From Lachnospiraceae bacterium (GTDB lineage Bacteria > Bacillota > Clostridia > Lachnospirales > Lachnospiraceae): a stretch of 64,000 nucleotides of DNA. A program made the position numbers and the translations under genes. Below are positions 15,650 to 64,000 of the stretch, in pieces. Every line of letters starts with the position of its first letter. The stretch's first letter is position 1. The notes below the pieces were generated by a model. It had not been told where the DNA came from and did not search any database. It saw only the letters and a list, made by a program, of their open reading frames with translations. Where the stretch lies: positions 7,602-71,601 of the forward strand of contig JBGVIE010000008.1 in assembly GCA_045122895.1 (NCBI GenBank), written 5' to 3'.

Positions 15650-15878
15650 TAACAAGAAAAGGACTGTTCAAATGAACAGCCCTCAAAGAATCTACATTAA
15701 TATATCATTCTCTAAGTAGCCCTCCATCTGATGATGACAGTTGCATAACTGTTAATTATGCACCCAAGATTACTCTATCAGGTTGAATAATCTTTCGGCG
15801 TATCCCCCTTTCATCTGTCATCATCTATTCCTGAAATATCAAACAGATTACTATTGTTCAACGCAACCTCTACTTGTT
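15650..15878 (-). promoter_or_regulatory. lysine riboswitch (L-box) with intrinsic terminator, leader of dapA-dapB
   Basis: The minus strand reads GTAGAGGTTGCG...AAAGGGGGATACGCCGAAAG...CTGTCATCATCAGATGGAGGGCTAC, matching conserved L-box blocks. This is followed by hairpin gggctgttca/tgaacagtcc (15661-15682) and UUUUCUUGUU. Confidence 0.85.
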
Positions 15879-15888
15879 ATTTAAATTC

Positions 15889-50006: not shown

Positions 50007-50148
50007 GCAACTGTTCAGAGCTAAGCATATTTTTACATTTAAACGTGATGAATGCTTGCATTCGTGAACGTTTAAATGTAAAAATATATTTGGCGGATAC
50101 GCCACACCGAGAAAACGACAGTTTTCGAGGTTAGCTCTGAACAGTTAC
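50007..50148. repeat. ~140-bp nested-hairpin intergenic element (family C)
   Basis: Outer 16-bp stem: 50009-50024 with 50131-50146. Inner 19-bp stem: 50027-50045 with 50069-50087. Further small hairpins at 50092-50104 and about 50109-50129. It lies between the ABC ATPase stop and the rarA start. Confidence 0.7.
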
Positions 50149-50150
50149 AA

Positions 50151-50921
50151 TTATTTTATTAATCTAAGTCCAAGTTTATCTGAATATTCGCTAAAAATGT
50201 TTTTCTCAATATGATACAGTCTGCTTATAAAATCAAGTGTAAATACTTCTTCTATCCCGGCGAACTTAATCACTTCTCCTTTGTCCACACAAATCACCTT
50301 ATCCGCAATAATTCTTACAAGCTCAAGCTCATGAAGTGACATCACAACTGTCATTCCACTATCTGCCATATCCTTTAAAATCTCTAATATCTCTATTTTG
50401 TGCTTTATGTCAAGAAAAGAAGTTGGCTCATCAAGGACTATTATGTCCGGTTTCTGGCAAATAGCCATTGCCAGCTTAATCTTTTGCTTCTGTCCGTCAC
50501 TTATCCTTGAAAAATCTTCATTCTTTAAATCATATGCGTTTACCATTTTTAATGCTTTTTCTATCTCTGCTCTATCCTCCATACCAAGTGTACCGAATTT
50601 GTTTGTATATGGATATCTCCCCTGACTTACAATATCGTAACAGCTTGTCATATCTACACTTATTCTGTCAGTGGACACATACGCCATAGTCTTTGCAAGC
50701 TCTGTCTGATGAATACTATCAATATCCGCATCAAGAATTTTAATATCACCACTTATTCTTTTCAACTGCTTTGTAATGCTCTTTAAAATAGTTGATTTAC
50801 CGGCTCCGTTAGGACCGATAAGCGCTACTATTTCACCTTTTTGTATATCGATATTTATATTCTTTATTATTGTTTTTTTTCCATATCCTACTTCTAAATC
50901 AGACGTGTTAATTCTAATCAT
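50151..50921 (-). CDS. ABC transporter ATP-binding protein (FecE/BtuD-type)
   Basis: Walker A GPNGAGKST, signature SDGQKQ, Walker B IIVLDEPTSFLD. Confidence 0.9.
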   Translation of the reverse strand: MIRINTSDLEVGYGKKTIIKNINIDIQKGEIVALIGPNGAGKSTILKSITKQLKRISGDIKILDADIDSIHQTELAKTMAYVSTDRISVDMTSCYDIVSQGRYPYTNKFGTLGMEDRAEIEKALKMVNAYDLKNEDFSRISDGQKQKIKLAMAICQKPDIIVLDEPTSFLDIKHKIEILEILKDMADSGMTVVMSLHELELVRIIADKVICVDKGEVIKFAGIEEVFTLDFISRLYHIEKNIFSEYSDKLGLRLIK

Positions 50922-50927
50922 TTTTCC

Positions 50928-51929
50928 CTACTTAACTCCTGAATTTCTCTTTATCATAATAACAATAACAATCGGTGCACCAAAAACTGCTGTAATTGTA
51001 CTTATACTCATCTCTGTCGGTGCAAACACTGTTCTTGCTATCAAATCACACATAAGACAAAACGATGCACCTGCCAGAAATGACGCCGGTATAATTGTTG
51101 ACGCTTTTGATGTCTTAAACATATTTCTCACAATATGAGGAACCGCAATTCCCACAAAGGACACAGGTCCTGCAAATGCTGTAACTGTGGATGACAATAT
51201 ACTTGATAATACCACAAGCATAACTCTGAGAAGTGAAACATTTACTCCAAGACTTTTGGCATAACTTTCCCCAAGCTGGTATGCTCCTATCGGCTTTGAA
51301 ATCATCATAGACAGGATAACTCCCAATATGACAGCTACAGCTATAACTTTTACATTGTCCATTGTAATCCCCGAAAAACTTCCAAGTGACCAGTTGTGAA
51401 GATTTACAATATTTGAATCATCTGCAAAGGTTACAAGGAAATCTGTTATCGCATTGCAGATATATCCAATCATAACACCACAGATAATTAACGTCGAGAC
51501 TGTGGTGACTTTTCCTGATATAATCAAAATAAACAAAACTGATATCATAGAGCCAATAAACGCTGCAATAATCATAGTTGCACTGTCAACCTTAAGTCCG
51601 TTATCAATAAAATATATCATAACGAAAGCCACTGCCATCTTTGCTCCGTGGGATATACCAAGCACAAATGGACTTGCAATGGGATTTGCAAAGAATGTCT
51701 GTAGCAAATATCCTGAAACAGACAATGCTCCGCCAAGCAAAATGGCAGCAAGTGCTCTTGGAAGACGTATATTCATAACGATTTTTCTATGTACGCCCTC
51801 CTCGCCTTTAAAGATAATATCAACAAGTTCACTGACGCTTATCTCAACGCTGCCAAGAGAAATATTCAAAACAAAAAGCATTATTAATAGCCCTGTCAAA
51901 AAGACATACCATATTTTCTTATTTTTCAT
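50928..51929 (-). CDS. FecCD/BtuC-family ABC permease
   Basis: IRLPRALAAILLGGALSVSGYLLQTFFANPIASPFVLGIS is the hallmark FecCD segment. About 9-10 TM helices. Confidence 0.9.
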   Translation of the reverse strand: MKNKKIWYVFLTGLLIMLFVLNISLGSVEISVSELVDIIFKGEEGVHRKIVMNIRLPRALAAILLGGALSVSGYLLQTFFANPIASPFVLGISHGAKMAVAFVMIYFIDNGLKVDSATMIIAAFIGSMISVLFILIISGKVTTVSTLIICGVMIGYICNAITDFLVTFADDSNIVNLHNWSLGSFSGITMDNVKVIAVAVILGVILSMMISKPIGAYQLGESYAKSLGVNVSLLRVMLVVLSSILSSTVTAFAGPVSFVGIAVPHIVRNMFKTSKASTIIPASFLAGASFCLMCDLIARTVFAPTEMSISTITAVFGAPIVIVIMIKRNSGVK

Positions 51930-53067
51930 CCTTATCCTTTACTCTAAACAAATATCTAAAATCATTATTTCCAGAAATCATATTATGCATATCAAGTATC
52001 ATATTAACAGTTCCTGTAGTCTGCTGAAACATATTTTTTGAAGTGCAGAAAACATTGTTATTCTTTACGGCAACTGAATCTTTCATCTGCGGACATTTCG
52101 TCAAAAGCTCTTCCACTGAATTTAACTCACCGTCAATTGAACTGTTATATATAAGATAATCTGCATTCATAGCTTTTTCAACAAATTCTTCCATCTGGAT
52201 ATTAATTGTTGACAATGCATTTTCATTCGTCAGGTCATCAAACACATATTCTGCACCTGCAGTTTCTATCATTTTAGCAATATAATCACCTGATTTTCTG
52301 ACATTAACCGCACCATTTGAGGTTACAAAAAAATATGCCACCTTAGGTCTTTCTCCCGAACTAATGCTTTCCTGAATCTCCTTAAGACTTTCCAATTGGT
52401 TTTCAAAAAATGCTTCTGCCTCTTTCTCCCTGCCAAAGAGTACACCATAAAACTTTATCCATTCAACCCTTCCTAACGGATGACCCTCCATACTTGATAA
52501 TTCAACAATAACAGGAATTCCCACCTCGTTTAGTTTATCCTTTACTCCCGGATTATGGTAAATCATAGTATTTTGAACAGCAATATCACAGTTTTTTTCA
52601 AGTAAAAGTTCAAAATCAGGCTCATTATACTTTCCTGCATAAAACATTTCACCATTATCAACCGCCTTCTTCGCTTTCTCTATACACAATTCATCATACT
52701 TAGTTCCGGTGAATCTGACTTTATCAGTCACACCAAGCTCACAAACCAAATCCATTGCTGATGATGACACCATATACATATTCTCAATCGGCTGTTTTAC
52801 TACCACTATATCATCATCACATTCAGGTACATCCGCTCCCTGCGGCACAACTAATATATCATCACCTTTATCTACATGAATAACTCTATATCCATCTCTA
52901 TAATAATCAACGCTAAATGCTGTTGCGTATTTCAAATCCATAGAGCCTGTCTTTTCAAGCTCTTTTATCGAAACCATATCAGTATTATTTTTTTTGCACC
53001 CGAAAAGTGCCATACAAATCATAACTATTAAAAATGTAAATATAATTTTTCTCATTCTCATATCCAT
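51919..53067 (-). CDS. ABC substrate-binding lipoprotein (BtuF/FhuD-type)
   Basis: Lipobox MALFGCKK. Class III periplasmic-binding-protein size and layout. In an operon with the FecCD permease. Confidence 0.8.
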   Translation of the reverse strand: MDMRMRKIIFTFLIVMICMALFGCKKNNTDMVSIKELEKTGSMDLKYATAFSVDYYRDGYRVIHVDKGDDILVVPQGADVPECDDDIVVVKQPIENMYMVSSSAMDLVCELGVTDKVRFTGTKYDELCIEKAKKAVDNGEMFYAGKYNEPDFELLLEKNCDIAVQNTMIYHNPGVKDKLNEVGIPVIVELSSMEGHPLGRVEWIKFYGVLFGREKEAEAFFENQLESLKEIQESISSGERPKVAYFFVTSNGAVNVRKSGDYIAKMIETAGAEYVFDDLTNENALSTINIQMEEFVEKAMNADYLIYNSSIDGELNSVEELLTKCPQMKDSVAVKNNNVFCTSKNMFQQTTGTVNMILDMHNMISGNNDFRYLFRVKDKDEK

Positions 53068-53122
53068 ATCCTATTCAAAAAAGCTGCCACAGTCATATAT
53101 GCGACAGCTTTTATTGTTACAT

Positions 53123-53983
53123 TTATTTTATTGTTGTTGAATCAAAGAATAATGTATATTCTATTTCATGTGGTTCACTCATTGCAACTGTATCTGCAAT
53201 AACAGGCATTCTGTAATCAAAACCAATTACAGGAATCTCAAATGTTGAGTCTCCACCTTCGTTAAGATTATTGTACTTAACATCATCAACCTTCATATAG
53301 TCATAATTCTTACTGCTCCACACTATAGTAGCAGTTGTCTTACCATCTTCTACCTTAAGCTTTGCAGGAGAAGATATGCCGGCTTTACCCGAGCCACCTT
53401 CAAGACTTACCTCGACTGTATATTCGCCATCCTTAAGACTTGAAATCTCTGCTACATTAATTACACCATCTGCATACGCATCTGTATCTAATGACTGTGC
53501 CTTAAAACAGAGCTTTCTATCATACCACTGCTCTTTCTTTGCACTAAATGCAGCTACATCTATAGCTTTATCAAGTGCTTCGACAGGTACTGTAAAAGTA
53601 TGTTCTTTGTTTTCATTTTCTACCGGAGTAATGAATGAAGCTTCATCTGCTTTTTCTGCCTCTTCACTTGTTCCCATATATATGTACTTATATCCGGTTC
53701 CACCCATTGTCATAACGGCACTCATCTGTCCAACCTTAACAGTGAGTGTACAGGCAGTGATATTAAACATTGATGAGCTTGATGCAACATCTATGGAATA
53801 TTCACCATCTTTAAGTTTTGAAGCTTCAATCGGTTCCATACCGGCTTCTGTCACTTCCTCCTGCTTTACAGTTGCTTCTTCTGACGTAGTTGTTTCACTC
53901 TTCTTTGAATCACTACTGTTACAGGCTACCATCATCATCACACTTATGCATACGAGTGAAAGTAAATATATTTTCTTCTTCAT
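53123..53983 (-). CDS. lipoprotein with two homologous ~110-aa beta-rich domains, unknown function
   Basis: Lipobox MMVACNSS. Internal duplication: LKDGEYSIDVASSSSMF..CTLTVKVGQMSAVMTM..YKYIYMG versus LKDGEYTVEVSLEGGSG..AKLKVEDGKTTATIVW..YDYMKVD. Confidence 0.7.
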   Translation of the reverse strand: MKKKIYLLSLVCISVMMMVACNSSDSKKSETTTSEEATVKQEEVTEAGMEPIEASKLKDGEYSIDVASSSSMFNITACTLTVKVGQMSAVMTMGGTGYKYIYMGTSEEAEKADEASFITPVENENKEHTFTVPVEALDKAIDVAAFSAKKEQWYDRKLCFKAQSLDTDAYADGVINVAEISSLKDGEYTVEVSLEGGSGKAGISSPAKLKVEDGKTTATIVWSSKNYDYMKVDDVKYNNLNEGGDSTFEIPVIGFDYRMPVIADTVAMSEPHEIEYTLFFDSTTIK

Positions 53984-53997
53984 TCTAGTAATCCTCT

Positions 53998-54987
53998 CTA
54001 TTTGATTTTTTCAATTGCAGACCTTGTGTGTTCTACAAAAATATCTCTAATCGCCTCTATTTCACCAAGTCCCTTTGTAATACATTCCACTTCATAACCT
54101 TCTGCTTCAAATGTCTTCTTCCATGTTCCTTCTTCATCACCTGCCATATCATTATTGGCATGGTCACCTGCCACTATCATAAGAGGCATAAGAACAACTT
54201 TCTTGTATCCTCCGGCTTTTACACCTGCCACTACATCATCAAGAGTAGGAGCAGCTTCTACAGTTCCTATGAAATAATTCTCATAACCGGCATTTGTTAA
54301 TGTATCCTGCATTTTAGGATATACCTGGTTAGAATCGGCAGTAGTACCATGTCCCATAAAACATATAGCTGTTTCTCCATTATCGTATTCCTTTGTGGCA
54401 TCCACAATAGCTTCCATCACTTTTCTAAAGTCATCATCTGATGTAAGAAGCGGTTCACCTATTACCACCTTCTCAAAGGCATCTGAATAATTAGCAATTT
54501 CATCTACTACATCCTTATACTCAAGACCGTTCATAAGATGTGTAGGCTGTACTACAAGCTTCTTAACTCCATTATTGCTGGCTCTGTCAAGTGCTTCCTT
54601 TACGTTGTCAATTGTTACATTATCCCTTCTCTTTACATGGTCAATTATTATCTGGCTAGTAAATCCTCTTCTAACTGAGTAATCTTTTCCAAACTCATCT
54701 TCGAGTCTCTGTTCAATTGCACCGATAGTTAATCTTCTGTTATCATTATAACTGGTTCCAAAAGATACTACCAACAGTTCGTTTTCTCCCATTCCATCTT
54801 CATTCCTTACTTTGTCCAGTGAAGCATCACCTGTGTTGTAATTTTCTTCCTCTTCCTGATCCTCATTAAGGTTAACTGCCTGTGTGGTGGTTGTGGTGTT
54901 TTCTTTCTTATCATCACTCTTTCCACATGACACGGCTGATGCTGCCATACATACGCACATCAATGTTACAAATAATTTCTTTCTCAT
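53998..54987 (-). CDS. cbiK: sirohydrochlorin cobaltochelatase CbiK homologue with lipoprotein signal peptide (exported)
   Basis: Start set at MRKKLFVTLMCVCMAASAVSCGK (ATG 54987) after AGGAGG. Core motifs: LLVVSFGTSY, HLMNGLEY, FMGHG, LMPLMIVAGDHANNDMAGD, GLGEIEAIRDIFVEH. The track's longer ORF runs back through the riboswitch. Confidence 0.85.
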   Translation of the reverse strand: MRKKLFVTLMCVCMAASAVSCGKSDDKKENTTTTTQAVNLNEDQEEEENYNTGDASLDKVRNEDGMGENELLVVSFGTSYNDNRRLTIGAIEQRLEDEFGKDYSVRRGFTSQIIIDHVKRRDNVTIDNVKEALDRASNNGVKKLVVQPTHLMNGLEYKDVVDEIANYSDAFEKVVIGEPLLTSDDDFRKVMEAIVDATKEYDNGETAICFMGHGTTADSNQVYPKMQDTLTNAGYENYFIGTVEAAPTLDDVVAGVKAGGYKKVVLMPLMIVAGDHANNDMAGDEEGTWKKTFEAEGYEVECITKGLGEIEAIRDIFVEHTRSAIEKIK

Positions 54988-55049
54988 TTTTTTACCTCCT
55001 ACTATTATGTGAACAAACCTGTCGAACCACAAAAAGAAATAAAAAATGC

Positions 55050-55342
55050 ACAAAGAAAAAAGGTCAGTATACCTGGAACGATAAACTGACATAAAACAGT
55101 ACGACCAATTCCTCGTGATCTGGATTCTTAATCCGGTACCAACAAAGTGGCAGGTTTCCTGACTTAAAGATCTTCGCATCCATCCGTCTTCCCAAATATC
55201 AATTCAGTGACTGTGCATACACACGTGGATATCAGCTCCCTTATCACAGTGACGAGATCGTACAGGTCTTTCACCTGTTTCCCTTTTAACCATTATATAC
55301 AAAGATATTTTGCACTAATGGCACCACCTGTTTATTCAACTG
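55050..55342 (-). promoter_or_regulatory. cobalamin riboswitch with intrinsic terminator
   Basis: The minus strand reads GGTGGTGCC..AAAAGGGAAACAGGTGAAAG..CACTG, then the B12 box AGTCAGGAAACCTGCCAC (complement of 55146-55165). The terminator hairpin is gtcagttta/tatactgac (55063-55090) followed by CUUUUUUCUUUG. Confidence 0.85.
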
Positions 55343-55348
55343 GCGTGA

Positions 55349-55377
55349 ATTATAGCATATATATTTTAAATTTACAA
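55349..55377 (-). promoter_or_regulatory. sigma-A promoter with extended -10 driving the riboswitch-cbiK-btu operon
   Basis: On the minus strand: TTGTAA (complement of 55372-55377, containing the cobQ TAA stop), 17-nt spacer, TGCTATAAT (-10 is the complement of 55349-55354). Confidence 0.5.
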
Positions 55378-56847
55378 CTGTAATATTTTATAAATGTAAT
55401 CAAGGTCAATATTATATCTGACTTCTCTTGCAAGCTTATCATACTGCATCTCTTTGTATAACACTCTGTCTGCCGATTCTGTCTCGAAGCTGTCAAAATC
55501 AAGTCCTCTCTTCTTATAAAGTGCACGAACAATTTTCTCTGATATTTTTCCGTTATCAAAAATCCCATGAACATAGCTTCCATATATGTTATTCACATTA
55601 CATCCATATATGATATTATTCGTATCAACTCCGCCCTCAATATAAGTTTTACCCATATGAATCTCATACCCTTTCACAGTCTCATCTGCCAAATCTGCAA
55701 AAATCCCATCACACTCTCCAAATGTATCGCAAACTCTTGTTCTTCTTTTCTCTTGGCCAAAAATGGTATTCACCGGCAAAAGTGACAATCCTTCGATTTC
55801 TCCACCAGACTCACTGGCAAGAGGATCTGATATTTTTCTTCCTAAAATCTGATACCCGCCACAAATTCCAAACACAGGTACTTTATTATTAACAGCCCTT
55901 TTTATCAGCACTTCAAAACCAGACTCTCTAAGCCACTTTATGTCTTCAATTGTACTCTTAGTCCCCGGAATAATCACAAAATCAGGATTACCAAAATCGC
56001 CTGTGTTACTGACATATCTGAGTGATACATTTTTGTACTGGTTAAACACATCAAAATCTGTATAGTTCGACATCTTTGGAAGCTTTATCACAGCTATATC
56101 AATTATCAACCTTGAGGATTTTTCAAATTTATCAGACAGACTGTCTTCATCCTCCACATCCACATTCACATACGGCACTACACCTGCAACCTTTATATTA
56201 CTCTTCTCCTCAAGAATATCTATCCCATCACGAAACAGATTCCTGTCTCCCCTGAATTTGTTTACAATCAGTCCCTTAATAAGTGCTCTCTCATCTTCTG
56301 AAAGAAGCTCTACAGTACCGATAAGCTGCGCAAATACTCCTCCTCTGTCTATATCGCCCACCAGCAAAACCGGTGCATTAAGAAGCTTTGCAAGCCCCAT
56401 ATTTACAATATCATCTCGTTTAAGATTAAGCTCAGCAGGACTTCCTGCTCCTTCTATCACGATAATGTCATACTCCTTATCAAGCTTTTCATAAGCGCTC
56501 ATTATATCTTTAAGGAATTCCTTCTTGCGGTCAAAATACTCTTTTGCCTTCATATTTCCAACTACTTTTCCGTTCACGATAACCTGTGAACCCACATCAG
56601 TAGTGGGTTTTAAAAGAATAGGATTCATACACACATCCGGCTCAATCCCTGCCGCTTCCGCCTGCATAACCTGAGCTCTCCCCATCTCAAAGCCGTCCTT
56701 TGTGATAAAAGAATTAAGTGCCATATTCTGAGATTTAAATGGTGCCACTCTATATCCATCCTGTTTAAATATTCTACATAACGCTGCCGCAAATAAGCTC
56801 TTTCCAACATTTGACATCGTTCCCTGTATCATTATGCACTTCGCCAC
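55372..56847 (-). CDS. cobQ: cobyric acid synthase (CobQ/CbiP)
   Basis: IMIQGTMSNVGKS N-terminus, CobQ ATPase domain and a C-terminal GATase (GICGGYQILG...H). Confidence 0.93.
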   Translation of the reverse strand: MAKCIMIQGTMSNVGKSLFAAALCRIFKQDGYRVAPFKSQNMALNSFITKDGFEMGRAQVMQAEAAGIEPDVCMNPILLKPTTDVGSQVIVNGKVVGNMKAKEYFDRKKEFLKDIMSAYEKLDKEYDIIVIEGAGSPAELNLKRDDIVNMGLAKLLNAPVLLVGDIDRGGVFAQLIGTVELLSEDERALIKGLIVNKFRGDRNLFRDGIDILEEKSNIKVAGVVPYVNVDVEDEDSLSDKFEKSSRLIIDIAVIKLPKMSNYTDFDVFNQYKNVSLRYVSNTGDFGNPDFVIIPGTKSTIEDIKWLRESGFEVLIKRAVNNKVPVFGICGGYQILGRKISDPLASESGGEIEGLSLLPVNTIFGQEKRRTRVCDTFGECDGIFADLADETVKGYEIHMGKTYIEGGVDTNNIIYGCNVNNIYGSYVHGIFDNGKISEKIVRALYKKRGLDFDSFETESADRVLYKEMQYDKLAREVRYNIDLDYIYKILQL

Positions 56848-56849
56848 TT

Positions 56850-57884
56850 TTATTCCTCCTGTATAATCTTAACCAGTTCTTCGTTCTCTTTATGTGTTCT
56901 CACAGCTATTCTGTAATATCCTCTGCCGCAAAGCCCTTCAATATTGTCTAAATCCCTTATCATAATGCCATTATTATACAGCTTTTCCACCTGATTTTTG
57001 TCAAATTTTATCATCAAAAAATTAGCAGCACTATCTATTACTCTTATATCTTTTTCTCTAAGTGATGATATTAAATATTTTCGTTCATCCTCAACATATT
57101 CCACTGTTTTTAGAAGATAATCTTTTTCTTTTAGCGCCGCAACACCTGCTAACTGGGCCGGTACAGATACACTCCACTCCGGTCCGAATACAGACATTTT
57201 TCTAATTAGCTCTCTGTTACTACTTATCCCATATCCAAGTCTGAGTCCCGGCATCGCAAAAGCTTTCGTAAATGCATTTACCACTAACAATTTTTCGTAC
57301 TCTAAATATCTGAGAGCAGTTACATGACTATTATCCTTCACAAAGTCAATAAAGCACTCATCTATCACAAGAAAAATATCACTCTCCTGTGCTTTTTTTA
57401 TAATTTTATCAAGCAAATCTTTTTCTATCATGTCGCCAGACGGATTATTGGGCTGACAGAGAATAGCCATATCAATATCAGGAGTCAGATAGTCTATGTA
57501 ATCTTCTCTTAATCTAAAATCATACTCCTCACTTCGGTTGTATTTAACTATGTGTGCCAAAGCTTCGCTAAGTGCCTTCTCATATTCGCTAAAGCAAGGA
57601 ATAGCAAGTAATGCCCTTTGGGGTTTTACCACACTGCAAATCTTATAGATAATCTCAATCGCACCATTGCCACACAAGACACATTCTTCATCCACTTTTC
57701 TAAATGCAGCAATCTCTTTTTTTAATTCTCTATAATCAACATCCGGGTAATGCTCACAGAGAGGAATATTATCAACAATTGTTTGCTTTACCTTAAGAGG
57801 CATACCAAGCGGATTAATATTTGCCGAAAAATCATACTTTATTAAATTGTCATATATATTTCCACCATGTGTATATTTATCCAT
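56850..57884 (-). CDS. cobD: L-threonine-O-3-phosphate decarboxylase (CobD, aminotransferase class I/II fold)
   Basis: HGGNIY N-terminal motif, QPNNPSG, and FTKAFAMPGLRLGY containing the PLP-binding Lys. Lies within the cob cluster. Confidence 0.88.
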   Translation of the reverse strand: MDKYTHGGNIYDNLIKYDFSANINPLGMPLKVKQTIVDNIPLCEHYPDVDYRELKKEIAAFRKVDEECVLCGNGAIEIIYKICSVVKPQRALLAIPCFSEYEKALSEALAHIVKYNRSEEYDFRLREDYIDYLTPDIDMAILCQPNNPSGDMIEKDLLDKIIKKAQESDIFLVIDECFIDFVKDNSHVTALRYLEYEKLLVVNAFTKAFAMPGLRLGYGISSNRELIRKMSVFGPEWSVSVPAQLAGVAALKEKDYLLKTVEYVEDERKYLISSLREKDIRVIDSAANFLMIKFDKNQVEKLYNNGIMIRDLDNIEGLCGRGYYRIAVRTHKENEELVKIIQEE

Positions 57885-58830
57885 ATATTCCTCTAATCAT
57901 AAACCTTATTGCAACACATATAACAAGCACCATAACAGAGGTCACATACATAATGTTATTTACTCTTTTTATGTCACGTGCTTCTATCTCTCTTTTATTG
58001 TCACCAATCGTATCCTTCTTAACAAGCTTCCCAAAATAATATGCATCTCCTGCAAGCTCTAACCCCAGTGCTCCTGCACAAACCGCCTCTGTCTGTGCAG
58101 AATTGGGACTCTTATGTTTTCGTCTGTCTCTTCTCCATATTCTGAATGCAGATTTAAAATCATAGCCAAGTATACCTGACGCTGCTATCATAAATAGTGC
58201 TGTAACTCTTGATGGAATATAATTCAAAACATCATCAAGCTTTGCTGCAAAACGTCCAAAATACATATATTTGTCATTCTTATATCCAATCATGGAATCC
58301 ATAGTATTGACTGCCTTATACAAAAAACCTAGACCTGCTCCACCAATGACAATGTACATAATCGGTGCAGTAACTCCATCTGATGTATTCTCTGCAACAG
58401 TTTCAACTGCTGCCTTTGCTATTCCTTTTTCATCAAGGCTTTCTGTGTCCCGTCCAACTATCATGGACACTGCATATCTTGCTCCCTTTGTATTGCCCTT
58501 TTCAAGCTCTTTACATACCTTCATACTCTCTTTTTTAAGACTTTTAGGTGCTATGAGATAATAACACATCACACCTTCCACAAAAATCCCAATTATTTTG
58601 TTAACCTTGTAGGTAAAAAAAAGAATTATAAGTGGCAGAGACACAGTCACTACAATCACAATAATAGCAAGTATCATTCCCTTTATGAATTTTTTCTTAT
58701 CACTGTCCTCTTCTCTATACATAAGTCTGTCAAGTCCTGATATCAGATTACCTATCCATCTGACAGGATGTGGCAGATTATAGGGATCCCCAAGTATAAA
58801 ATCGATGACAAATCCAATAAGTATTTCCAT
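57877..58830 (-). CDS. cbiB: adenosylcobinamide-phosphate synthase (CbiB)
   Basis: LGDPYNLPHPVRWIG...SPNSAQTEAV...G are CbiB/CobD membrane-protein motifs. Confidence 0.9.
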   Translation of the reverse strand: MEILIGFVIDFILGDPYNLPHPVRWIGNLISGLDRLMYREEDSDKKKFIKGMILAIIVIVVTVSLPLIILFFTYKVNKIIGIFVEGVMCYYLIAPKSLKKESMKVCKELEKGNTKGARYAVSMIVGRDTESLDEKGIAKAAVETVAENTSDGVTAPIMYIVIGGAGLGFLYKAVNTMDSMIGYKNDKYMYFGRFAAKLDDVLNYIPSRVTALFMIAASGILGYDFKSAFRIWRRDRRKHKSPNSAQTEAVCAGALGLELAGDAYYFGKLVKKDTIGDNKREIEARDIKRVNNIMYVTSVMVLVICVAIRFMIRGIYG

Positions 58831-59414
58831 TATTTCTTTAGTTCCTTTTTTACAGTTATTATTCCATTATTATATTCTGTCAGATATCCCTCACCATTTG
58901 ATACCTGATAATCAAAGTAGTTCTTTTTATCCTTATCAAAGGCTTCCATAATAGCCATTATACTGCCGCCATGCACCACAAATGCCAGACATTTACAGCT
59001 ATTATACTTATTCACAATCTCCAAAAAAGCATTTTTGCATCTGTGTTTAAACTCTTCTACACTCTCACCATTTGGAAAAGGAAGTGTACCAATACTGTCA
59101 ATCCATCTCTGATAATCTTCATTGCCATTAAGCATAGCATAATTCTTTCCCTCAAAATCACCAAAGTCACATTCCTTAAGTTCTTCCACTTCTACAATTT
59201 CAACATCATGAAACAAAAGCTTTGCACTCTGTACGCATCTTACCATTGAGCTTACTATTACTTTGTCAGGCTCTATATCATCATACATTCCACCGATGAT
59301 ATTCATATTCATTTCCCTAATACCTTCCTCACATAAGCTCTCATCAGTTCTTCCTACGTATTTTTTTGTAAGATTTCCCTCTGTCTTTCCATGTCTTATA
59401 AATGCAATTTCCAT
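58830..59414 (-). CDS. cobC: alpha-ribazole phosphatase (histidine phosphatase family, CobC)
   Basis: FIRHGKTEGN RHG motif and a C-terminal VVHGG. Lies within the cob cluster. Confidence 0.8.
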   Translation of the reverse strand: MEIAFIRHGKTEGNLTKKYVGRTDESLCEEGIREMNMNIIGGMYDDIEPDKVIVSSMVRCVQSAKLLFHDVEIVEVEELKECDFGDFEGKNYAMLNGNEDYQRWIDSIGTLPFPNGESVEEFKHRCKNAFLEIVNKYNSCKCLAFVVHGGSIMAIMEAFDKDKKNYFDYQVSNGEGYLTEYNNGIITVKKELKK

Positions 59415-59418
59415 TTTT

Positions 59419-59763
59419 TTATTTTCCTTTAATCTCCTGTGCCAAACCGCAAACTACCCTGTAGACATAATCTGCCTTATCAGCCACAAGACATGAGAAG
59501 CTTCCCACATACTCTCTATACATTCTCTCTTCCCTGTCAATCGGAACTATTCCGCTCCCAACCTGATTAATTATTATGCACCAGCCCTCTTTTTCACAGG
59601 TAAGCTTAAAAAACAAGTCCTCAATCGAAAGTCGGGTTCTCATGGCATCAATAAGCATATCTCTGTCTGGAAATATTATGTGTTCATCTGAATAATTTAA
59701 TACTTCCTTTGCGTATTTTGTTTTTCCTTCGAAGGCACCGCCCACTATCAATGTATTTCTCAT
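59419..59763 (-). CDS. short CobU-like protein (P-loop plus C-terminal CobU segment, middle region missing)
   Basis: About 114 aa starting at MRNTLIVGGAFEGKT (Walker A retained). The C-terminus INQVGSGIVPIDREERMYREYVGSF...YRVVCGL matches the CobU C-terminal block. The segment carrying the guanylylated His region is absent. Confidence 0.6.
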   Translation of the reverse strand: MRNTLIVGGAFEGKTKYAKEVLNYSDEHIIFPDRDMLIDAMRTRLSIEDLFFKLTCEKEGWCIIINQVGSGIVPIDREERMYREYVGSFSCLVADKADYVYRVVCGLAQEIKGK

Positions 59764-59794
59764 TTTGCTCCTCATTTCTGAGCGGCGCGATTTT

Positions 59795-60559
59795 TCACAC
59801 TGCTCCTGTTATTAGCACTGTCAACACACAAAACAATTCACATAGCTGTAAAAAATATCCTGCAACATCTCCTGTTATCCCACCGAATGTCCTGTACGCA
59901 AAAATTCTGTAATACACAAAAGTCAATAGAGCCACCACTGTTACTCCTGCTCCAATATATGGATTAATGCACATCATTGCAGCCGTACAGACAATCACAT
60001 AGAGTATTTCAGTCACAATGGTAACTGCTTTATGTGCCGGCTTTGTAAAACTTGTAAGGCTTCCCATTCCGGTGGCACTTTTAAAGGTTACAGCTCCAAG
60101 TCCGCTTAGTGCCCTGGATATTACAAAAATAAATCCGGAACACATTACCGCTTCCTCATCTCCAAGCTGCGTAAACGCTGCAAAAAACAAAATCATATAC
60201 AGACATATATGAATAACAGCAAATGCACCAACTCTTGAATCCTTCATCACTGAAAGCTTTTTCTCTTTATCACCAAGACAAGCCTTTGCATCATTCACAT
60301 CCATAAAGCCATCTATATGAATTCCACCTGTTACAATAATTGGAATGCATAATGCTACTGCTCCAAAAAAATTACCGGATAATCCTAAATAATCACATCC
60401 AAGAAAAGCCAAATATATCAGTGCTCCTATTACCACCCCTATAAGTGGAAAAAAACAAAGTGCATATCTTTTATTCTCTTCCTTCCATTCTACTACCGGC
60501 ATCGGAATTCTTGAATACATCAAAAATGCTGATGCAAAAGATTTTAAAACAGTCATCAT
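59795..60559 (-). CDS. cobS: adenosylcobinamide-GDP ribazoletransferase (cobalamin synthase CobS)
   Basis: Polytopic 254-aa protein. FLMYSRIPMP, GGIHIDGFMD and GGITGDVAG are CobS motifs. Confidence 0.9.
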   Translation of the reverse strand: MMTVLKSFASAFLMYSRIPMPVVEWKEENKRYALCFFPLIGVVIGALIYLAFLGCDYLGLSGNFFGAVALCIPIIVTGGIHIDGFMDVNDAKACLGDKEKKLSVMKDSRVGAFAVIHICLYMILFFAAFTQLGDEEAVMCSGFIFVISRALSGLGAVTFKSATGMGSLTSFTKPAHKAVTIVTEILYVIVCTAAMMCINPYIGAGVTVVALLTFVYYRIFAYRTFGGITGDVAGYFLQLCELFCVLTVLITGAV

Positions 60560-60564
60560 CTCAC

Positions 60565-61083
60565 CTACTTTAATCTATATGGTATTCCACAAACTGCCTC
60601 TATAACTTCGTCTGCTTTTTCAGAAAGCATAGCATTTAGCCTGCAGATGTTTTCAATATACCGCTCTGTCTCATATGGATACTTAACACCATCCTCTGAT
60701 ACTATGTTAGATACTATCACAAGATTATCACATTTTGAATAAAGCTTCATAATATCATTATATATTTTTTCACTTACATTCTCGAGGAAGCCATCAGAAA
60801 ACATTTCGTTAGCTACAAGATTACCCATACATTCCAGTAGCACTACATTATTTTCGGAACTATCCATATTCACTTCGCCAATGTTTCTATATTTTTCAAT
60901 TGTTGTAAATCCTTTATTTTTTCGCATCTGTCTGTGTCTTTGTATAGCTTTATCAGCTTCTTCTGTATAAGGTTCCATAGTGGCAAGATAATATCTTTTT
61001 ACATCACCTTCAATGCCTGCTATTTTATCCTCTGCAATCTTTGACTTACCAGACTTGCTTGCTCCCAAAACCAATACTAACAC
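60565..61083 (-). CDS. cobU: bifunctional adenosylcobinamide kinase / adenosylcobinamide-phosphate guanylyltransferase
   Basis: P-loop LGASKSGKS, YLATMEP...IQRHRQMR (His region), and a C-terminal VSN...G block. Confidence 0.88.
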   Translation of the reverse strand: MLVLVLGASKSGKSKIAEDKIAGIEGDVKRYYLATMEPYTEEADKAIQRHRQMRKNKGFTTIEKYRNIGEVNMDSSENNVVLLECMGNLVANEMFSDGFLENVSEKIYNDIMKLYSKCDNLVIVSNIVSEDGVKYPYETERYIENICRLNAMLSEKADEVIEAVCGIPYRLK

Positions 61084-62126
61084 TATATTAATTCCTCATA
61101 TGCTTCTATTTCAAGGTTATCAAATTTATGTGTGGATTTATAAAGTGAAAGTGCTGCATCAAGCATTGGAAAAATCATAACGGCACCAGTACCCTCACCA
61201 AGACACATATCTGCATTTATTACAGGCTCAAGTCCTATAAATTCAAGCATCCACTTACCTGCCGGCTCCTTTGAGACATGTGATGGAAGCATATAATCTA
61301 CAGAATTATTATCCATAAGCTTTGCAATTGCTGCTGCAACTGCTGATATAAATCCGTCAATCACTACAGGTACTTTATAGATTGCACCTCCTAAAAACAA
61401 TCCAACCATTCCTGCAATATCAAATCCTCCAACCTTTGAAAGAAGATTCAGGGCAAAATCATAATCATTCATATTCCCTCTGTCACATACGTTGTTCTTC
61501 TCTAGTGCCAGCTTTATAACTTCTATTTTTCTGTTCAAGCCATCCGAGGTAAGACCTGCTCCTTTACCTGTAACCTCCTCCACAGTTTTATTCAAAAGAA
61601 CCGCTGCTATAGCTGATGATGTAGTGGTATTGCCTATCCCCATCTCCCCTGTTGCAATGATTTTGTAACCTTTTTCAGTCACAGTTTTAACCATATCAAT
61701 ACCCACATTAATTGCCGCAAGACATTCCTCCCTGGTCATGGCAGGCCCCTTTGCGATATTGTAAGTCCCTCTTCTTATATGCCTGTCTATCACACCACTA
61801 TCCTGTGCCTCCTGCTTCATTCCTATATCAACGGGAAACACATCTGCACCAAAAAGACCGCCTATTGTATTAATATTTCCGTCATTTTTTGCCATAGCAT
61901 TTGCAACAATTGTAGTGACGACAGACTCTGACTGGGTAACACCCATCTCAACAACACCATTGTCTGCACACATTACCACAACACATTTTTTATCCAGGGA
62001 AAAATCACTGTCTGATGTGATTCCTGCAATCTGAATCACCATATCCTCTAATCTTCCAAGACTATGTAATGGCTTTGCAACCATATTCCATCTCTGCCTT
62101 GCCTCATTCATCTTTTCTATATTCAT
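61083..62126 (-). CDS. cobT: nicotinate-nucleotide--dimethylbenzimidazole phosphoribosyltransferase
   Basis: KPLHSLGRLE, MCADNGV, GEMGIGNTT and LGEGTGA are CobT motifs. Confidence 0.93.
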   Translation of the reverse strand: MNIEKMNEARQRWNMVAKPLHSLGRLEDMVIQIAGITSDSDFSLDKKCVVVMCADNGVVEMGVTQSESVVTTIVANAMAKNDGNINTIGGLFGADVFPVDIGMKQEAQDSGVIDRHIRRGTYNIAKGPAMTREECLAAINVGIDMVKTVTEKGYKIIATGEMGIGNTTTSSAIAAVLLNKTVEEVTGKGAGLTSDGLNRKIEVIKLALEKNNVCDRGNMNDYDFALNLLSKVGGFDIAGMVGLFLGGAIYKVPVVIDGFISAVAAAIAKLMDNNSVDYMLPSHVSKEPAGKWMLEFIGLEPVINADMCLGEGTGAVMIFPMLDAALSLYKSTHKFDNLEIEAYEELI

Positions 62127-63461
62127 TTACTCTGCCTCTCGCTTTTTCTTATATTCACTGCATTTTTTTATAAAATTATCTGCCGCCTCTCTATTTCCGT
62201 AGAAATATATGTGTGGAAATCCTGCATACATATTTTCATTAAGATGCACCGACTTGTAATTAGTCTGATTGCTAAGCTTAGTTATATCCATATCACTTCC
62301 GTTATTATCACTGTCAAAATAGTGAAATTCATGGGCGCTTACACAAATATTACTGTCTCCAAACAAACTGTCCTTATCTGATTTCATATTCACATATCCA
62401 AACCTTACAAGACGCTCTTTTTTTGTAACTGTTCCATTAATCACACCCGCCATCTTATACTCATCATCAGTTTTAATGCAGTCGTGAAGATACATAAACC
62501 CACCACACTCTGCAATTATTGGAACTTTATTCACACACTCCCTGACACTTTTTAACATGTCAATATTAGAAGATAATTCAGAAAGATACAGTTCAGGATA
62601 ACCTCCCGGAATAATAATTCCATCTATTTCATCCGGCACTTTTTTGTCTCTAAGTGGTGAAAAATAGCAAACCTCACAGCCGGCTTTTTCAAGATACGAT
62701 ACATTATCATTGTATATAAAACAGAATGCTTCATCTTTTGCAATTGCAATCCTCGGCTTGTTATCTACTACTTTGTCGTATGCTACAGCTATCTCTATAT
62801 TTGCCACGTCTGCCAGATTAACTATATCATCTAACATAAGGTTCTCTTCAACTGCTTTTGAAAGAAGATCTACTTTTTCCTTAAGACCTGCAACCTCATC
62901 TGCTGTTACAAGTCCAAGATGCCTTGATTCTAAGCTGTATTCCCTGTTAAACGGGAGGCGACCAAGATACTTAAGCCCCATCTCCCTGCAAATATCCATC
63001 GCCATACCTGTAAGACCCTCAGGCAGCCTGTTAAATACAACGCCCTTTATGTTATTCTCTTTGTAGTTAACAAAACCACTGATTACCGCACCCATAGATT
63101 CGCTCATTCCCTTGCAGTCCAATACAAGAATCACAGGTGTATCCGTTATTCTGCTTACCTCTGCTGATGAACCCTTTCCCAGCACTCCGTCATAGAAGCC
63201 CATAACACCTTCTATAACAGAAAAATCTTTTGAATAATCCCTCAGCAGATGACATATTGTAGCTTCATCACAAAAGATACTATCAAGATTTCTGCCACTT
63301 GCACCAAGTATTTTTCCATGAAACATAGGATCAATATAATCCGGACCACACTTAAAAGAGGATACCTCATACCCTCTTTTCATCAAGGCACTGATAAGCC
63401 CTATTGTAAGCGTCGTCTTTCCCGAACCGCTGTTTGTTCCTGCAATCATTATTCTTTTCAT
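62127..63461 (-). CDS. cbiA: cobyrinate a,c-diamide synthase
   Basis: IMIAGTNSGSGKTT, FKCGPDYIDP, and a C-terminal GATase with ECGGFMYL. Confidence 0.93.
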   Translation of the reverse strand: MKRIMIAGTNSGSGKTTLTIGLISALMKRGYEVSSFKCGPDYIDPMFHGKILGASGRNLDSIFCDEATICHLLRDYSKDFSVIEGVMGFYDGVLGKGSSAEVSRITDTPVILVLDCKGMSESMGAVISGFVNYKENNIKGVVFNRLPEGLTGMAMDICREMGLKYLGRLPFNREYSLESRHLGLVTADEVAGLKEKVDLLSKAVEENLMLDDIVNLADVANIEIAVAYDKVVDNKPRIAIAKDEAFCFIYNDNVSYLEKAGCEVCYFSPLRDKKVPDEIDGIIIPGGYPELYLSELSSNIDMLKSVRECVNKVPIIAECGGFMYLHDCIKTDDEYKMAGVINGTVTKKERLVRFGYVNMKSDKDSLFGDSNICVSAHEFHYFDSDNNGSDMDITKLSNQTNYKSVHLNENMYAGFPHIYFYGNREAADNFIKKCSEYKKKREAE

Positions 63462-64000
63462 TATCTGTCTCCAATTATAAAAATAGGATTTTCACCATTT
63501 AGAAGCGTATGACTTCCTATTTTTCTCGTGGTGGCAACTGATATCTCTGTAACAAAATATTCTCTGTCATATTTTTTAAACTCACTGATAGCTGCCGACA
63601 AAGTCTCAAGTGATATTGCTGTTACTACCACTCTGCAATTATTATTTTTGCTGACAACATATTCAAATACTTTATCAAGACTTCCGCTGCTTCCTCCTAC
63701 AAACACCACATCAGGTGAAGGCATATCAAAAAGGCCGGCTTTTATATCTTTGTGAACCACAATGATGTTGTCACAGGAGAATTTTTTTGCATTCTCACGG
63801 GTGAGGTGTATGGCATCGCTATTCTTATCAATCCCATACACCTTACCTTTTACCGCCTGTTTTGCCATCTCCACAGACACCGAACCTGTACCACATCCTA
63901 TGTCAACGCAGACGCTGCCACTTTCAACCCTAAGCTTTGACATAACTACCGCCCTTACACAAGACTTAGTCATTGGAACTTCACTTCTTACAAATTCCTC
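63461..64000 (-). CDS. cbiT: precorrin-6Y C5,15-methyltransferase (decarboxylating) CbiT domain, 5' end outside the window or fused to CbiE
   Basis: PMTKSCVRAVVMSKL...VDIGCGTGSVSVE is the SAM-methyltransferase CbiT signature. The reading frame stays open upstream of the track's Met to the window edge (EEFVRSEVPMTK). Confidence 0.85.
   Translation of the reverse strand, partial: EEFVRSEVPMTKSCVRAVVMSKLRVESGSVCVDIGCGTGSVSVEMAKQAVKGKVYGIDKNSDAIHLTRENAKKFSCDNIIVVHKDIKAGLFDMPSPDVVFVGGSSGSLDKVFEYVVSKNNNCRVVVTAISLETLSAAISEFKKYDREYFVTEISVATTRKIGSHTLLNGENPIFIIGDR

Follow-up and report, generated by a model that had tools for sequence, protein, structure and literature searches.

What does a vitamin B12-regulated importer operon take up when the genes ahead of the importer encode a chelatase and a tandem-domain lipoprotein that are both exported? 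This question was raised by five genes in a 64,000-nucleotide (nt) stretch of Lachnospiraceae bacterium DNA (assembly GCA_045122895.1, contig JBGVIE010000008.1, positions 7,602 to 71,601 of the forward strand; the whole stretch is hereafter called the window), in which a cobalamin riboswitch is followed by an exported CbiK homologue, a lipoprotein with two NEAT-like domains, and the binding lipoprotein, permease and ATPase of a type II ATP-binding cassette (ABC) importer (Table 1). The module is real, strongly conserved and uncharacterised, and represents a variant of exported-CbiK uptake loci combined with a NEAT relay. We suggest, at a probability of about 0.5, that it encodes a surface relay, repressed by B12, by which an early cobalt tetrapyrrole is captured or metalated and then brought into a B12 pathway whose first steps are missing. 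The hypothesis is plausible and testable, and bears on the source of the B12 ring and its cobalt in many gut Clostridia.

The leader RNA and the gene order were analysed to define the regulated unit. The aptamer matched RF00174, for which the gathering score is 31.5 bits, over the full length of the model, and was the only copy in the assembled genome. The promoter-like site in front of it overlaps the cobQ stop codon with its -35 hexamer. Between the aptamer and cbiK, a hairpin of -13.4 kcal/mol (z -4.06, with 0 of 200 shuffled sequences equally stable) is followed by a run of six Us; it was overlooked by a simple terminator scan because its loop exceeds 8 nt, and a candidate helix that would sequester the ribosome-binding site in the leader was not significant (z -1.39). 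Judged from the sequence, the hairpin and the U-run form an expression platform that is predicted to be able to switch the downstream gene. The five genes are co-directional, with junctions of +14, +55, -11 and +6 nt in order from cbiK, and cbiK starts at an ATG behind AGGAGG, a 393-amino acid (aa) open reading frame that reaches into the aptamer not representing the true start. These results agreed with the original prediction, made from the letters alone, of a promoter and a B12 riboswitch with its own terminator ahead of five closely spaced genes, and the gene identities were confirmed by Pfam. The prediction had also pointed out that two of the five genes encode surface lipoproteins foreign to the textbook importer, which holds.

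The first of these two lipoproteins is an exported CbiK. It is composed of a signal peptide with a lipobox-like motif, a linker of ~45 aa rich in threonine, glutamate and aspartate, and a class II chelatase domain at residues 70-327, which matched profile positions 3-262 of PF06180 at 287.5 bits (gathering cut-off 26.2). Lipobox-like motifs, recognised at the pattern level along with signal-peptide-like sequence, were found at the N-termini of CbiK (AVSC), the NEAT-like protein (MVAC) and the binding protein (LFGC), and the lipoprotein signal earlier claimed for the cbiK homologue was thereby recovered at that level. Relatives with structures in the PDB are Salmonella enterica CbiK (1qgo), Porphyromonas gingivalis FetB (9b86) and Desulfovibrio vulgaris CbiK(P) (2xvx). 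Alignment to 1qgo placed the metal-site residues H145, E175 and H207 of the S. enterica enzyme at H213, E244 and H276 here, and the metal-site residues were kept in all 105 orthologous exported CbiKs collected, 94 of which carry a lipobox-like motif. A quick tree divided the exported from the cytoplasmic proteins with support 78, and the score to the sirohydrochlorin cobaltochelatase equivalog NF047852 was 238 bits against a cut-off of 400, the location of the protein likewise not being the cytoplasmic one of that equivalog. The exported CbiK is the sole CbiK/CbiX gene of the assembled genome. Two candidates for a chelatase inside the cell were rejected: a dual localisation of CbiK through an internal start, since the Met before the chelatase domain is Ile in orthologues ('DEIGENE') and the start is not conserved, and a hidden class III chelatase of the SirC/CysG type, for which only weak partial NAD_binding_7 matches inside 450-630-aa proteins were obtained.

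The second lipoprotein, which had been noted as a two-domain protein, is by its structural model made up of two NEAT folds, each an eight-stranded β-sandwich, and is not a canonical haem NEAT protein. Using the AlphaFold model (35 homologues; predicted local distance difference test score, pLDDT, 86), Foldseek matched both domains together to the two-NEAT chains of IsdB and IsdH, and the single domains to IsdX1, IsdC, Hbp2 and IsdH-N3 with a probability of 1.0 and TM-scores of 0.61-0.69 (0.64-0.69 for the first three). A profile built on the protein's own family aligned the first domain (D1) with IsdX2-NEAT5 (E-value 0.002); PF05031 scored 28.9 bits against a cut-off of 32.8 on the N-terminal half of the second domain (D2) only, and many homologues carry a precomputed PF05031 match. 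A plain sequence search of the PDB returned nothing for this protein, the NEAT relationship being reached only by the family profile and the fold search, and its matches to the PplA flavoprotein family of NCBIfam (36 bits against a cut-off of 325) and to Big_13 were set aside as noise. The profile alignment to IsdX2-NEAT5 indicated that the YxxxY haem-iron motif of strand β-8 is replaced by K150xxxY154 in D1, and the correspondence between the two domains placed H272xxxY276 at the same position in D2. Among 99 homologues with 35-64% identity to the window protein, KxxxY was kept in 97 and HxxxY in 95. Such a change of the axial ligand from Tyr to Lys or His may fit a change of both metal and ligand. 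No C-terminal sorting signal was found in the protein, and its anchor is of the lipoprotein type. Thousands of unnamed homologues are present in the databases, and a single database source labels a homologue 'Iron transporter'.

The remaining three genes carry all parts of a type II importer, with PF01497, PF01032 and PF00005 each above its cut-off. The original prediction expected BtuFCD; the importer type stood, but the assignment did not reach equivalog level. The best NCBIfam match of the permease was BtuC, at 210 bits against a cut-off of 334, the BtuD match scored 108 bits against 281, and the ATPase matched FecE, haem and corrinoid ATPases of NCBIfam, all below cut-off. Sequence and profile searches with the binding protein gave no BtuF match, the profile search retrieving only Lmo2184 and one unnamed binding protein. 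Its structural model (pLDDT 90) matched the folds of CeuE, YiuA, ShuT, HutB and BtuF about equally, and naming a substrate from this fold was abandoned because siderophore, haem, molybdate and B12 binders score alike. 'BtuFCD' would thus describe the importer as a class-level label only. The ATPase in the window is a short form, most other orthologues having a C-terminal extension of ~110 aa (many are 365-390 aa long). Separately, at three loci (L023:2336-4639, L026:2529-4940 and L030:4958-7294) the slot after the permease is occupied by one frame of 767-803 aa, the C-terminal ~490 aa of which match CobQ and the N-terminal ~280-310 aa of which have no match to the window ATPase; a fusion of the importer ATPase to CobQ in several genera is possible.

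The conservation of this cassette was then evaluated in two surveys. In a species scan with one genome per species, at least 593 loci encoding the NEAT-like protein were found, and 80 were kept for examination; CbiK lies directly upstream of the NEAT-like gene in 76 of these, and all five genes are present in 67. RF00174 was detected in 69 of the 72 kept loci with enough upstream sequence, which come from named Clostridia. It was absent from the fetched upstream sequence of the other three (L095, L100 and L124), despite their order of CbiK, NEAT-like protein and binding protein; one of the three is binned as Prevotella, probably through bin contamination. The carriers include Enterocloster lavalensis, [Clostridium] asparagiforme DSM 15981, Ruminococcus flavefaciens FD-1, 007c and Y1, Evtepia gabavorous, Agathobaculum hominis, and metagenome-assembled genomes (MAGs) of Oscillibacter, Blautia and Butyrivibrio, and the cassette occurs in hundreds of gut Clostridia. 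In the second survey, one genome from each of 150 Lachnospiraceae genera was searched for the module, defined as an exported CbiK adjoining a NEAT-like gene. The module was found in 37 genera, with RF00174 upstream on the same strand at 33 of 33 assessable loci, and the link between a B12 riboswitch and an exported cbiK therefore held in both surveys. In the present and most other module genomes the single riboswitch makes the module the only B12-regulated importer. Recurrent fusions join CbiK to D1, and D2 to the binding protein, in several genera. Giant surface proteins of 952-1750 aa (L031:738-3974, L033:4131-9383 and L044:5717-8575) combine multiple NEAT-like domains of the D1 and D2 types with a C-terminus that resembles part of the binding protein. 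Their genes have a B12 riboswitch immediately upstream and the same importer downstream; in the genome of the first of these (G056), no CbiK was found anywhere. Literature searches found no published description of the Gram-positive cassette, of its NEAT-like part or of a link to pathway gaps.

Next, the same 150 genera were cross-tabulated for CbiD, CbiL, CobA, CbiM and the binding protein. CbiD was present in 36 of the 37 module genomes and in 44 of the 45 genomes with the NEAT-like protein, and of the 67 genomes without CbiD just one, of 89% completeness, carries the module. Neither the module nor orthologues of the binding protein were found in the ~66 genera without corrin-ring genes, which are B12 auxotrophs and most of which do have B12 riboswitches; the binding-protein orthologues occurred only in module-bearing or corrin-ring genomes. 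Within the ring-making genomes, the module was associated with gaps in the early steps. CobA was not found in 20 of 37 module genomes versus ~5 of 44 module-free CbiD+ genomes, CbiL was not found in 14 of 37, and 17 of the 18 genomes with CbiD and no CbiL carry the module or a variant with the NEAT-like protein only. In 27 of the 37 module genomes, no CbiK/CbiX gene other than that of the exported CbiK was found. CbiM of the cbi type was present in 3 of 37 module genomes versus 28 of 48 module-free CbiD+ genomes, making the module nearly exclusive with CbiMNQO plus cytoplasmic CbiK. HemC was not found in the five genomes tested (the present genome, G005, G063, G119 and G134, the last four at least 99% complete). 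The present genome and several relatives that are at least 99% complete have no HemC, CobA, full-length CbiL or cytoplasmic chelatase, and keep an intact series from CbiH through CbiC. The 99%-complete G119, for example, holds in one operon, with all frames intact, the riboswitch, the exported cbiK, the NEAT-like gene, the importer and cobQ through to cbiC, D, F, G, H, J/ET and A, and cbiL is absent from that operon.

The present genome displayed a similar pattern. CobA, HemC, a full-length CbiL and CbiM were not found in its assembled 86%, and the operon upstream of the module comprises cbiC, a cbiL stump, cbiD, F, G, H, J, ET, A, cobT, U, S, C, cbiB, cobD and cobQ. The 89-aa stump lies between cbiC and cbiD, past the high end of the window (L010:5630-5899), and covers only positions 1-38 of the TP_methylase profile. 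A truncated CobU paralogue (118 aa, profile positions 103-168; window 59419-59775, minus strand) adjoins cobS and the full-length cobU. No riboswitch of its own was found for this biosynthesis operon, just upstream of whose cbiC lies a hairpin followed by a T-run (L010:6541-6700); in relatives such as G119, the riboswitch and the module precede the biosynthesis genes. Two proteins with a B12-binding domain are encoded in the genome.

The restriction to genomes that hold the ring genes and the association with missing early steps point to the feeding of corrin-ring biosynthesis rather than the scavenging of finished B12. Delivery of a cobalt tetrapyrrole is the most economical reading, because the module holds the position of cbiMNQO-cbiK, replaces them in distribution and is kept where ring-making or metalation fails. 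The earlier suggestion that corrinoids or cobalt are captured or remodelled outside the cell is compatible with this evidence, although the distribution turns it towards ring biosynthesis, and the accompanying suggestion of a competition for other tetrapyrroles gained no support. From the parts, riboswitch, folds, conserved residues, cassette conservation and co-distribution with pathway gaps observed above, we infer the ligand, the direction of transfer and the chelation outside the cell as follows. At low adenosylcobalamin the riboswitch would let transcription through the terminator, as the layout of the leader suggests. The lipid-anchored CbiK would bind an isobacteriochlorin-type intermediate released by neighbouring cells, such as sirohydrochlorin, factor III or their cobalt forms, and would insert Co2+ outside the cell if the intermediate is metal-free. 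From there the two NEAT-fold domains would hand the cobalt tetrapyrrole to the binding lipoprotein and so to the type II importer; the two kinds of fusion suggest the relay order CbiK, D1, D2, binding protein. Once imported, it would join the pathway at the CbiL or CbiH step, the remaining conversions falling to the intact CbiH, F, G, D, J, ET, C, A and P together with the nucleotide-loop enzymes, and the module would take over the role of CbiMNQO and cytoplasmic CbiK. The extracellular insertion of cobalt, an early committed reaction of the anaerobic B12 route, is the more tentative part of this scheme: it is conceivable, at less than even odds, that the surface CbiK metalates a metal-free isobacteriochlorin supplied by neighbours or by the cell's own export, and that a NEAT-type relay with cobalt-suited axial ligands hands the product on to a dedicated importer. 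The relay reading is supported by the in vitro insertion of Co and Mn into porphyrins by FetB, a surface CbiK homologue (PMC13065792).

Several observations weigh against delivery of an early cobalt tetrapyrrole. Six module genomes (e.g. G002) have CobA and CbiL and no cytoplasmic CbiK or CbiM, and salvage leaves them unexplained unless their own sirohydrochlorin is exported or an unrecognised chelatase is present. The 100%-complete G002 has an early-step cluster of hemC, cobA-hemD, hemB and cbiL (L148:4586-6657), in which a DUF819 membrane protein and a 301-aa protein without a family or PDB match occupy the expected place of cbiK; its only CbiK is the exported one and it has no CbiM. Where CbiL is missing, the imported compound would have to be cobalt-factor III or a later intermediate, and the one literature search directed at extracellular uptake of these intermediates yielded no account of their presence in the gut or rumen. 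Control by the riboswitch fits the import of finished corrinoids equally well. As for the counts, the genomes are mutually related, so that the co-distribution overstates independence; the numbers were read by eye from long tables; frame length and neighbourhood were the sole criteria for telling cbi-type CbiM from a longer, NikMN-like type; and the present genome is a 1.99-Mb Lachnospiraceae MAG of 86% completeness.

The main rival, and a serious one, is that the module captures corrinoids that are finished or nearly so. Its two lipoproteins would then act like BtuG and BtuH of Bacteroides, binding cobamides, cobinamide or cobyric acid on the cell surface and passing them to the BtuFCD-type importer, and the chelatase fold would be no more than a binding scaffold. 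The riboswitch, the best family match of the permease and the position of the module as the only B12-regulated importer in the present and most module genomes all accord with this explanation; the genome also has CbiP, CbiB and the nucleotide-loop genes for using late intermediates, and His272 could serve as a His-on ligand to cobalt. It is weakened, however, by the failure to find the module and its binding-protein orthologues in the ~66 ring-less genera, where scavenging matters most, and it leaves unexplained the exclusivity with CbiMNQO and cytoplasmic CbiK, the intact CbiH-CbiC of genomes without CobA, HemC and CbiL, and the invariant metal site of the 105 exported CbiKs. We therefore consider the capture of finished corrinoids possible but doubtful.

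Uptake of cobalt ions would make the module a plain replacement of CbiMNQO: Co2+ would be captured by the exported CbiK, and the metal or a small cobalt chelate would enter through the importer, along the lines proposed for the CbtJKL system, which is under riboswitch control. Cobalt transporters are commonly under B12 riboswitches (PMC7689651), and the near-exclusivity with cbi-type CbiM, the restriction to corrin-ring genomes and the conserved cobalt-binding residues would all be accounted for. Nevertheless, the 27 module genomes without a cytoplasmic CbiK/CbiX have no enzyme of that kind to use the ion, and because CobA is absent from 20 module genomes and HemC was not found in the five tested, there would be no ring to metalate; nor would two NEAT-fold domains, which are tetrapyrrole binders, have a role in ion transport. 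Free-cobalt uptake is thus unlikely, at less than one chance in ten. Least probable of all, and likewise unlikely, is haem or iron acquisition with an incidental riboswitch, as proposed for the reverse ferrochelatase IhtB of P. gingivalis and for NEAT relays. In its favour are the NEAT fold common to haem receptors, the haem binding of FetB and CbiK(P) and the name 'Iron transporter' given to one homologue; against it are a B12 riboswitch at ~95% of assessable loci, a module placed inside cob/cbi operons, the replacement of the haem-ligating Tyr of YxxxY in both domains, and a FetB that showed no reverse chelatase activity with haemin (PMC13065792).

The positions of the module and its flanking features are collected in Table 1. 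The terminator-like hairpin behind the ATPase gene is part of a long palindromic intergenic element at 50007-50148 of the window, which separates the ATPase gene from rarA. A lysine riboswitch (RF00168, 115.5 bits) at 15709-15880 on the minus strand is unrelated to the B12 module.

Table 1. Features of the B12-regulated module and its surroundings, numbered by position in the window
Feature	Position	Strand	Details
cob/cbi biosynthesis operon, directly upstream	55372-64000	-	cobQ, cobD, cbiB, cobC, truncated cobU, cobS, cobU, cobT, cbiA, cbiET; continues past the window
Sigma-70-type promoter-like site	55349-55377	-	TTGTAA, 17 nt, TATAAT with upstream TG; 10/12 matches
Cobalamin riboswitch aptamer (RF00174)	55132-55343	-	105.4 bits, E-value 2.3e-25, model positions 1-189
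Predicted expression platform	55051-55090	-	Terminator-like hairpin 55063-55090, then UUUUUUCUUUG
cbiK homologue, exported lipoprotein (329 aa)	53998-54987	-	PF06180
Lipoprotein, two divergent predicted NEAT-fold domains (286 aa)	53123-53983	-	D1 ~residues 50-165, D2 ~180-285
Class III (Peripla_BP_2) substrate-binding lipoprotein	51919-53067	-	PF01497, 111.6 bits
FecCD/BtuC-type permease, type II ABC importer	50928-51929	-	PF01032, 285 bits
ABC ATPase (256 aa)	50151-50921	-	PF00005, 112 bits
Terminator-like hairpin 3' of the ATPase gene	50091-50104	-	Within a larger palindromic intergenic element

Gut and rumen communities share B12 and its precursors as keystone nutrients, and genome-based predictions score these Clostridia as producers or as puzzling partial producers. 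If the module is an uptake route for early cobalt tetrapyrroles, it would be the missing transporter of the 'tetrapyrrole precursor salvagers', it would place a biosynthetic chelatase at work on the cell surface and extend NEAT domains from haem to cobalt tetrapyrroles, and the calling of B12 producers from metagenomes would change. Should cobalt also be inserted outside the cell, one cassette would replace a cobalt transporter together with a cytoplasmic chelatase, and hundreds of gut and rumen Clostridia would run B12 synthesis on shared early intermediates. The module proteins are small, soluble and encoded in cultured strains (E. lavalensis, [C.] asparagiforme DSM 15981 and the three R. 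flavefaciens strains), which makes the hypothesis directly testable.

Comparison with known systems indicated which parts of the module have precedents. The salvagers described by Shelton et al. (2019, PMC6461909), mostly Firmicutes, likewise have corrin-ring genes without the upstream tetrapyrrole steps, and their dependence on 5-aminolevulinic acid (ALA) was shown experimentally; that study named no uptake system, left an exported chelatase out of consideration and verified ALA salvage only, whereas the gap in module genomes spans CobA, CbiK and often CbiL. With CbiMNQO and cytoplasmic CbiK the module shares the operon slot directly behind the riboswitch (in G021, the order is riboswitch, cbiM, cbiK, cbiL, cbiD), and the net purpose of both would be to bring cobalt into the ring, but CbiMNQO imports the ion for chelation inside, whereas in the module the only chelatase is outside the cell. 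BtuG and BtuH, which work with BtuB in Bacteroides, are described in PMC6143338 as riboswitch-controlled accessory surface lipoproteins ahead of a B12-type transporter; they have unrelated folds, occur in B12 auxotrophs and bind finished cobamides, in contrast to a module found only in corrin-ring genomes. The Isd, IsdX and Hbp haem relays of Firmicutes (IsdB/H/A/C to IsdE-IsdF) resemble the module in placing tandem NEAT surface domains upstream of a class III binding lipoprotein and a FecCD permease, and they work by relay; they differ in their sortase (LPXTG) anchor, YxxxY motif and Fur control, in place of which the module has a lipid anchor, KxxxY and HxxxY, a B12 riboswitch, a chelatase partner and a PF05031 score below cut-off.

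The closest precedents are loci with an exported CbiK adjoining a FecCD-type importer, and the module is a locus of this kind. The periplasmic CbiK(P) of D. vulgaris is an exported homologue (E-value 1.4e-31 to the window CbiK), and in Desulfovibrio one B12 element regulates both cbiK-cbiL and btuCDF (Rodionov 2004, PMC545781); D. vulgaris differs in also having a cytoplasmic CbiK and no NEAT-like partner, and CbiK(P) was reported to bind haem, with a proposed function in haem binding and transport. In P. gingivalis, the Iht system consists of the TonB receptor IhtA, the lipid-anchored exported CbiK homologue IhtB, which is FetB (E-value 5.9e-42 to the window CbiK), and the adjoining binding-protein-dependent FecCD-type importer IhtCDE. 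It differs from the module in being Gram-negative, in its TonB receptor and in having no NEAT-like protein, and earlier interpretations made it a system for haem/iron or Mn-porphyrin. FetB acts as a chelatase on Co and Mn (PMC13065792), the iht genes did not respond to iron or haem starvation (PMC12094164), and P. gingivalis, as PMC6461909 cites from Roper (2000), has the corrin pathway and cannot make precorrin-2. An uptake route for early cobalt tetrapyrroles in the Clostridia, if it exists, would offer a new reading of both the IhtB/FetB and the CbiK(P) puzzles.

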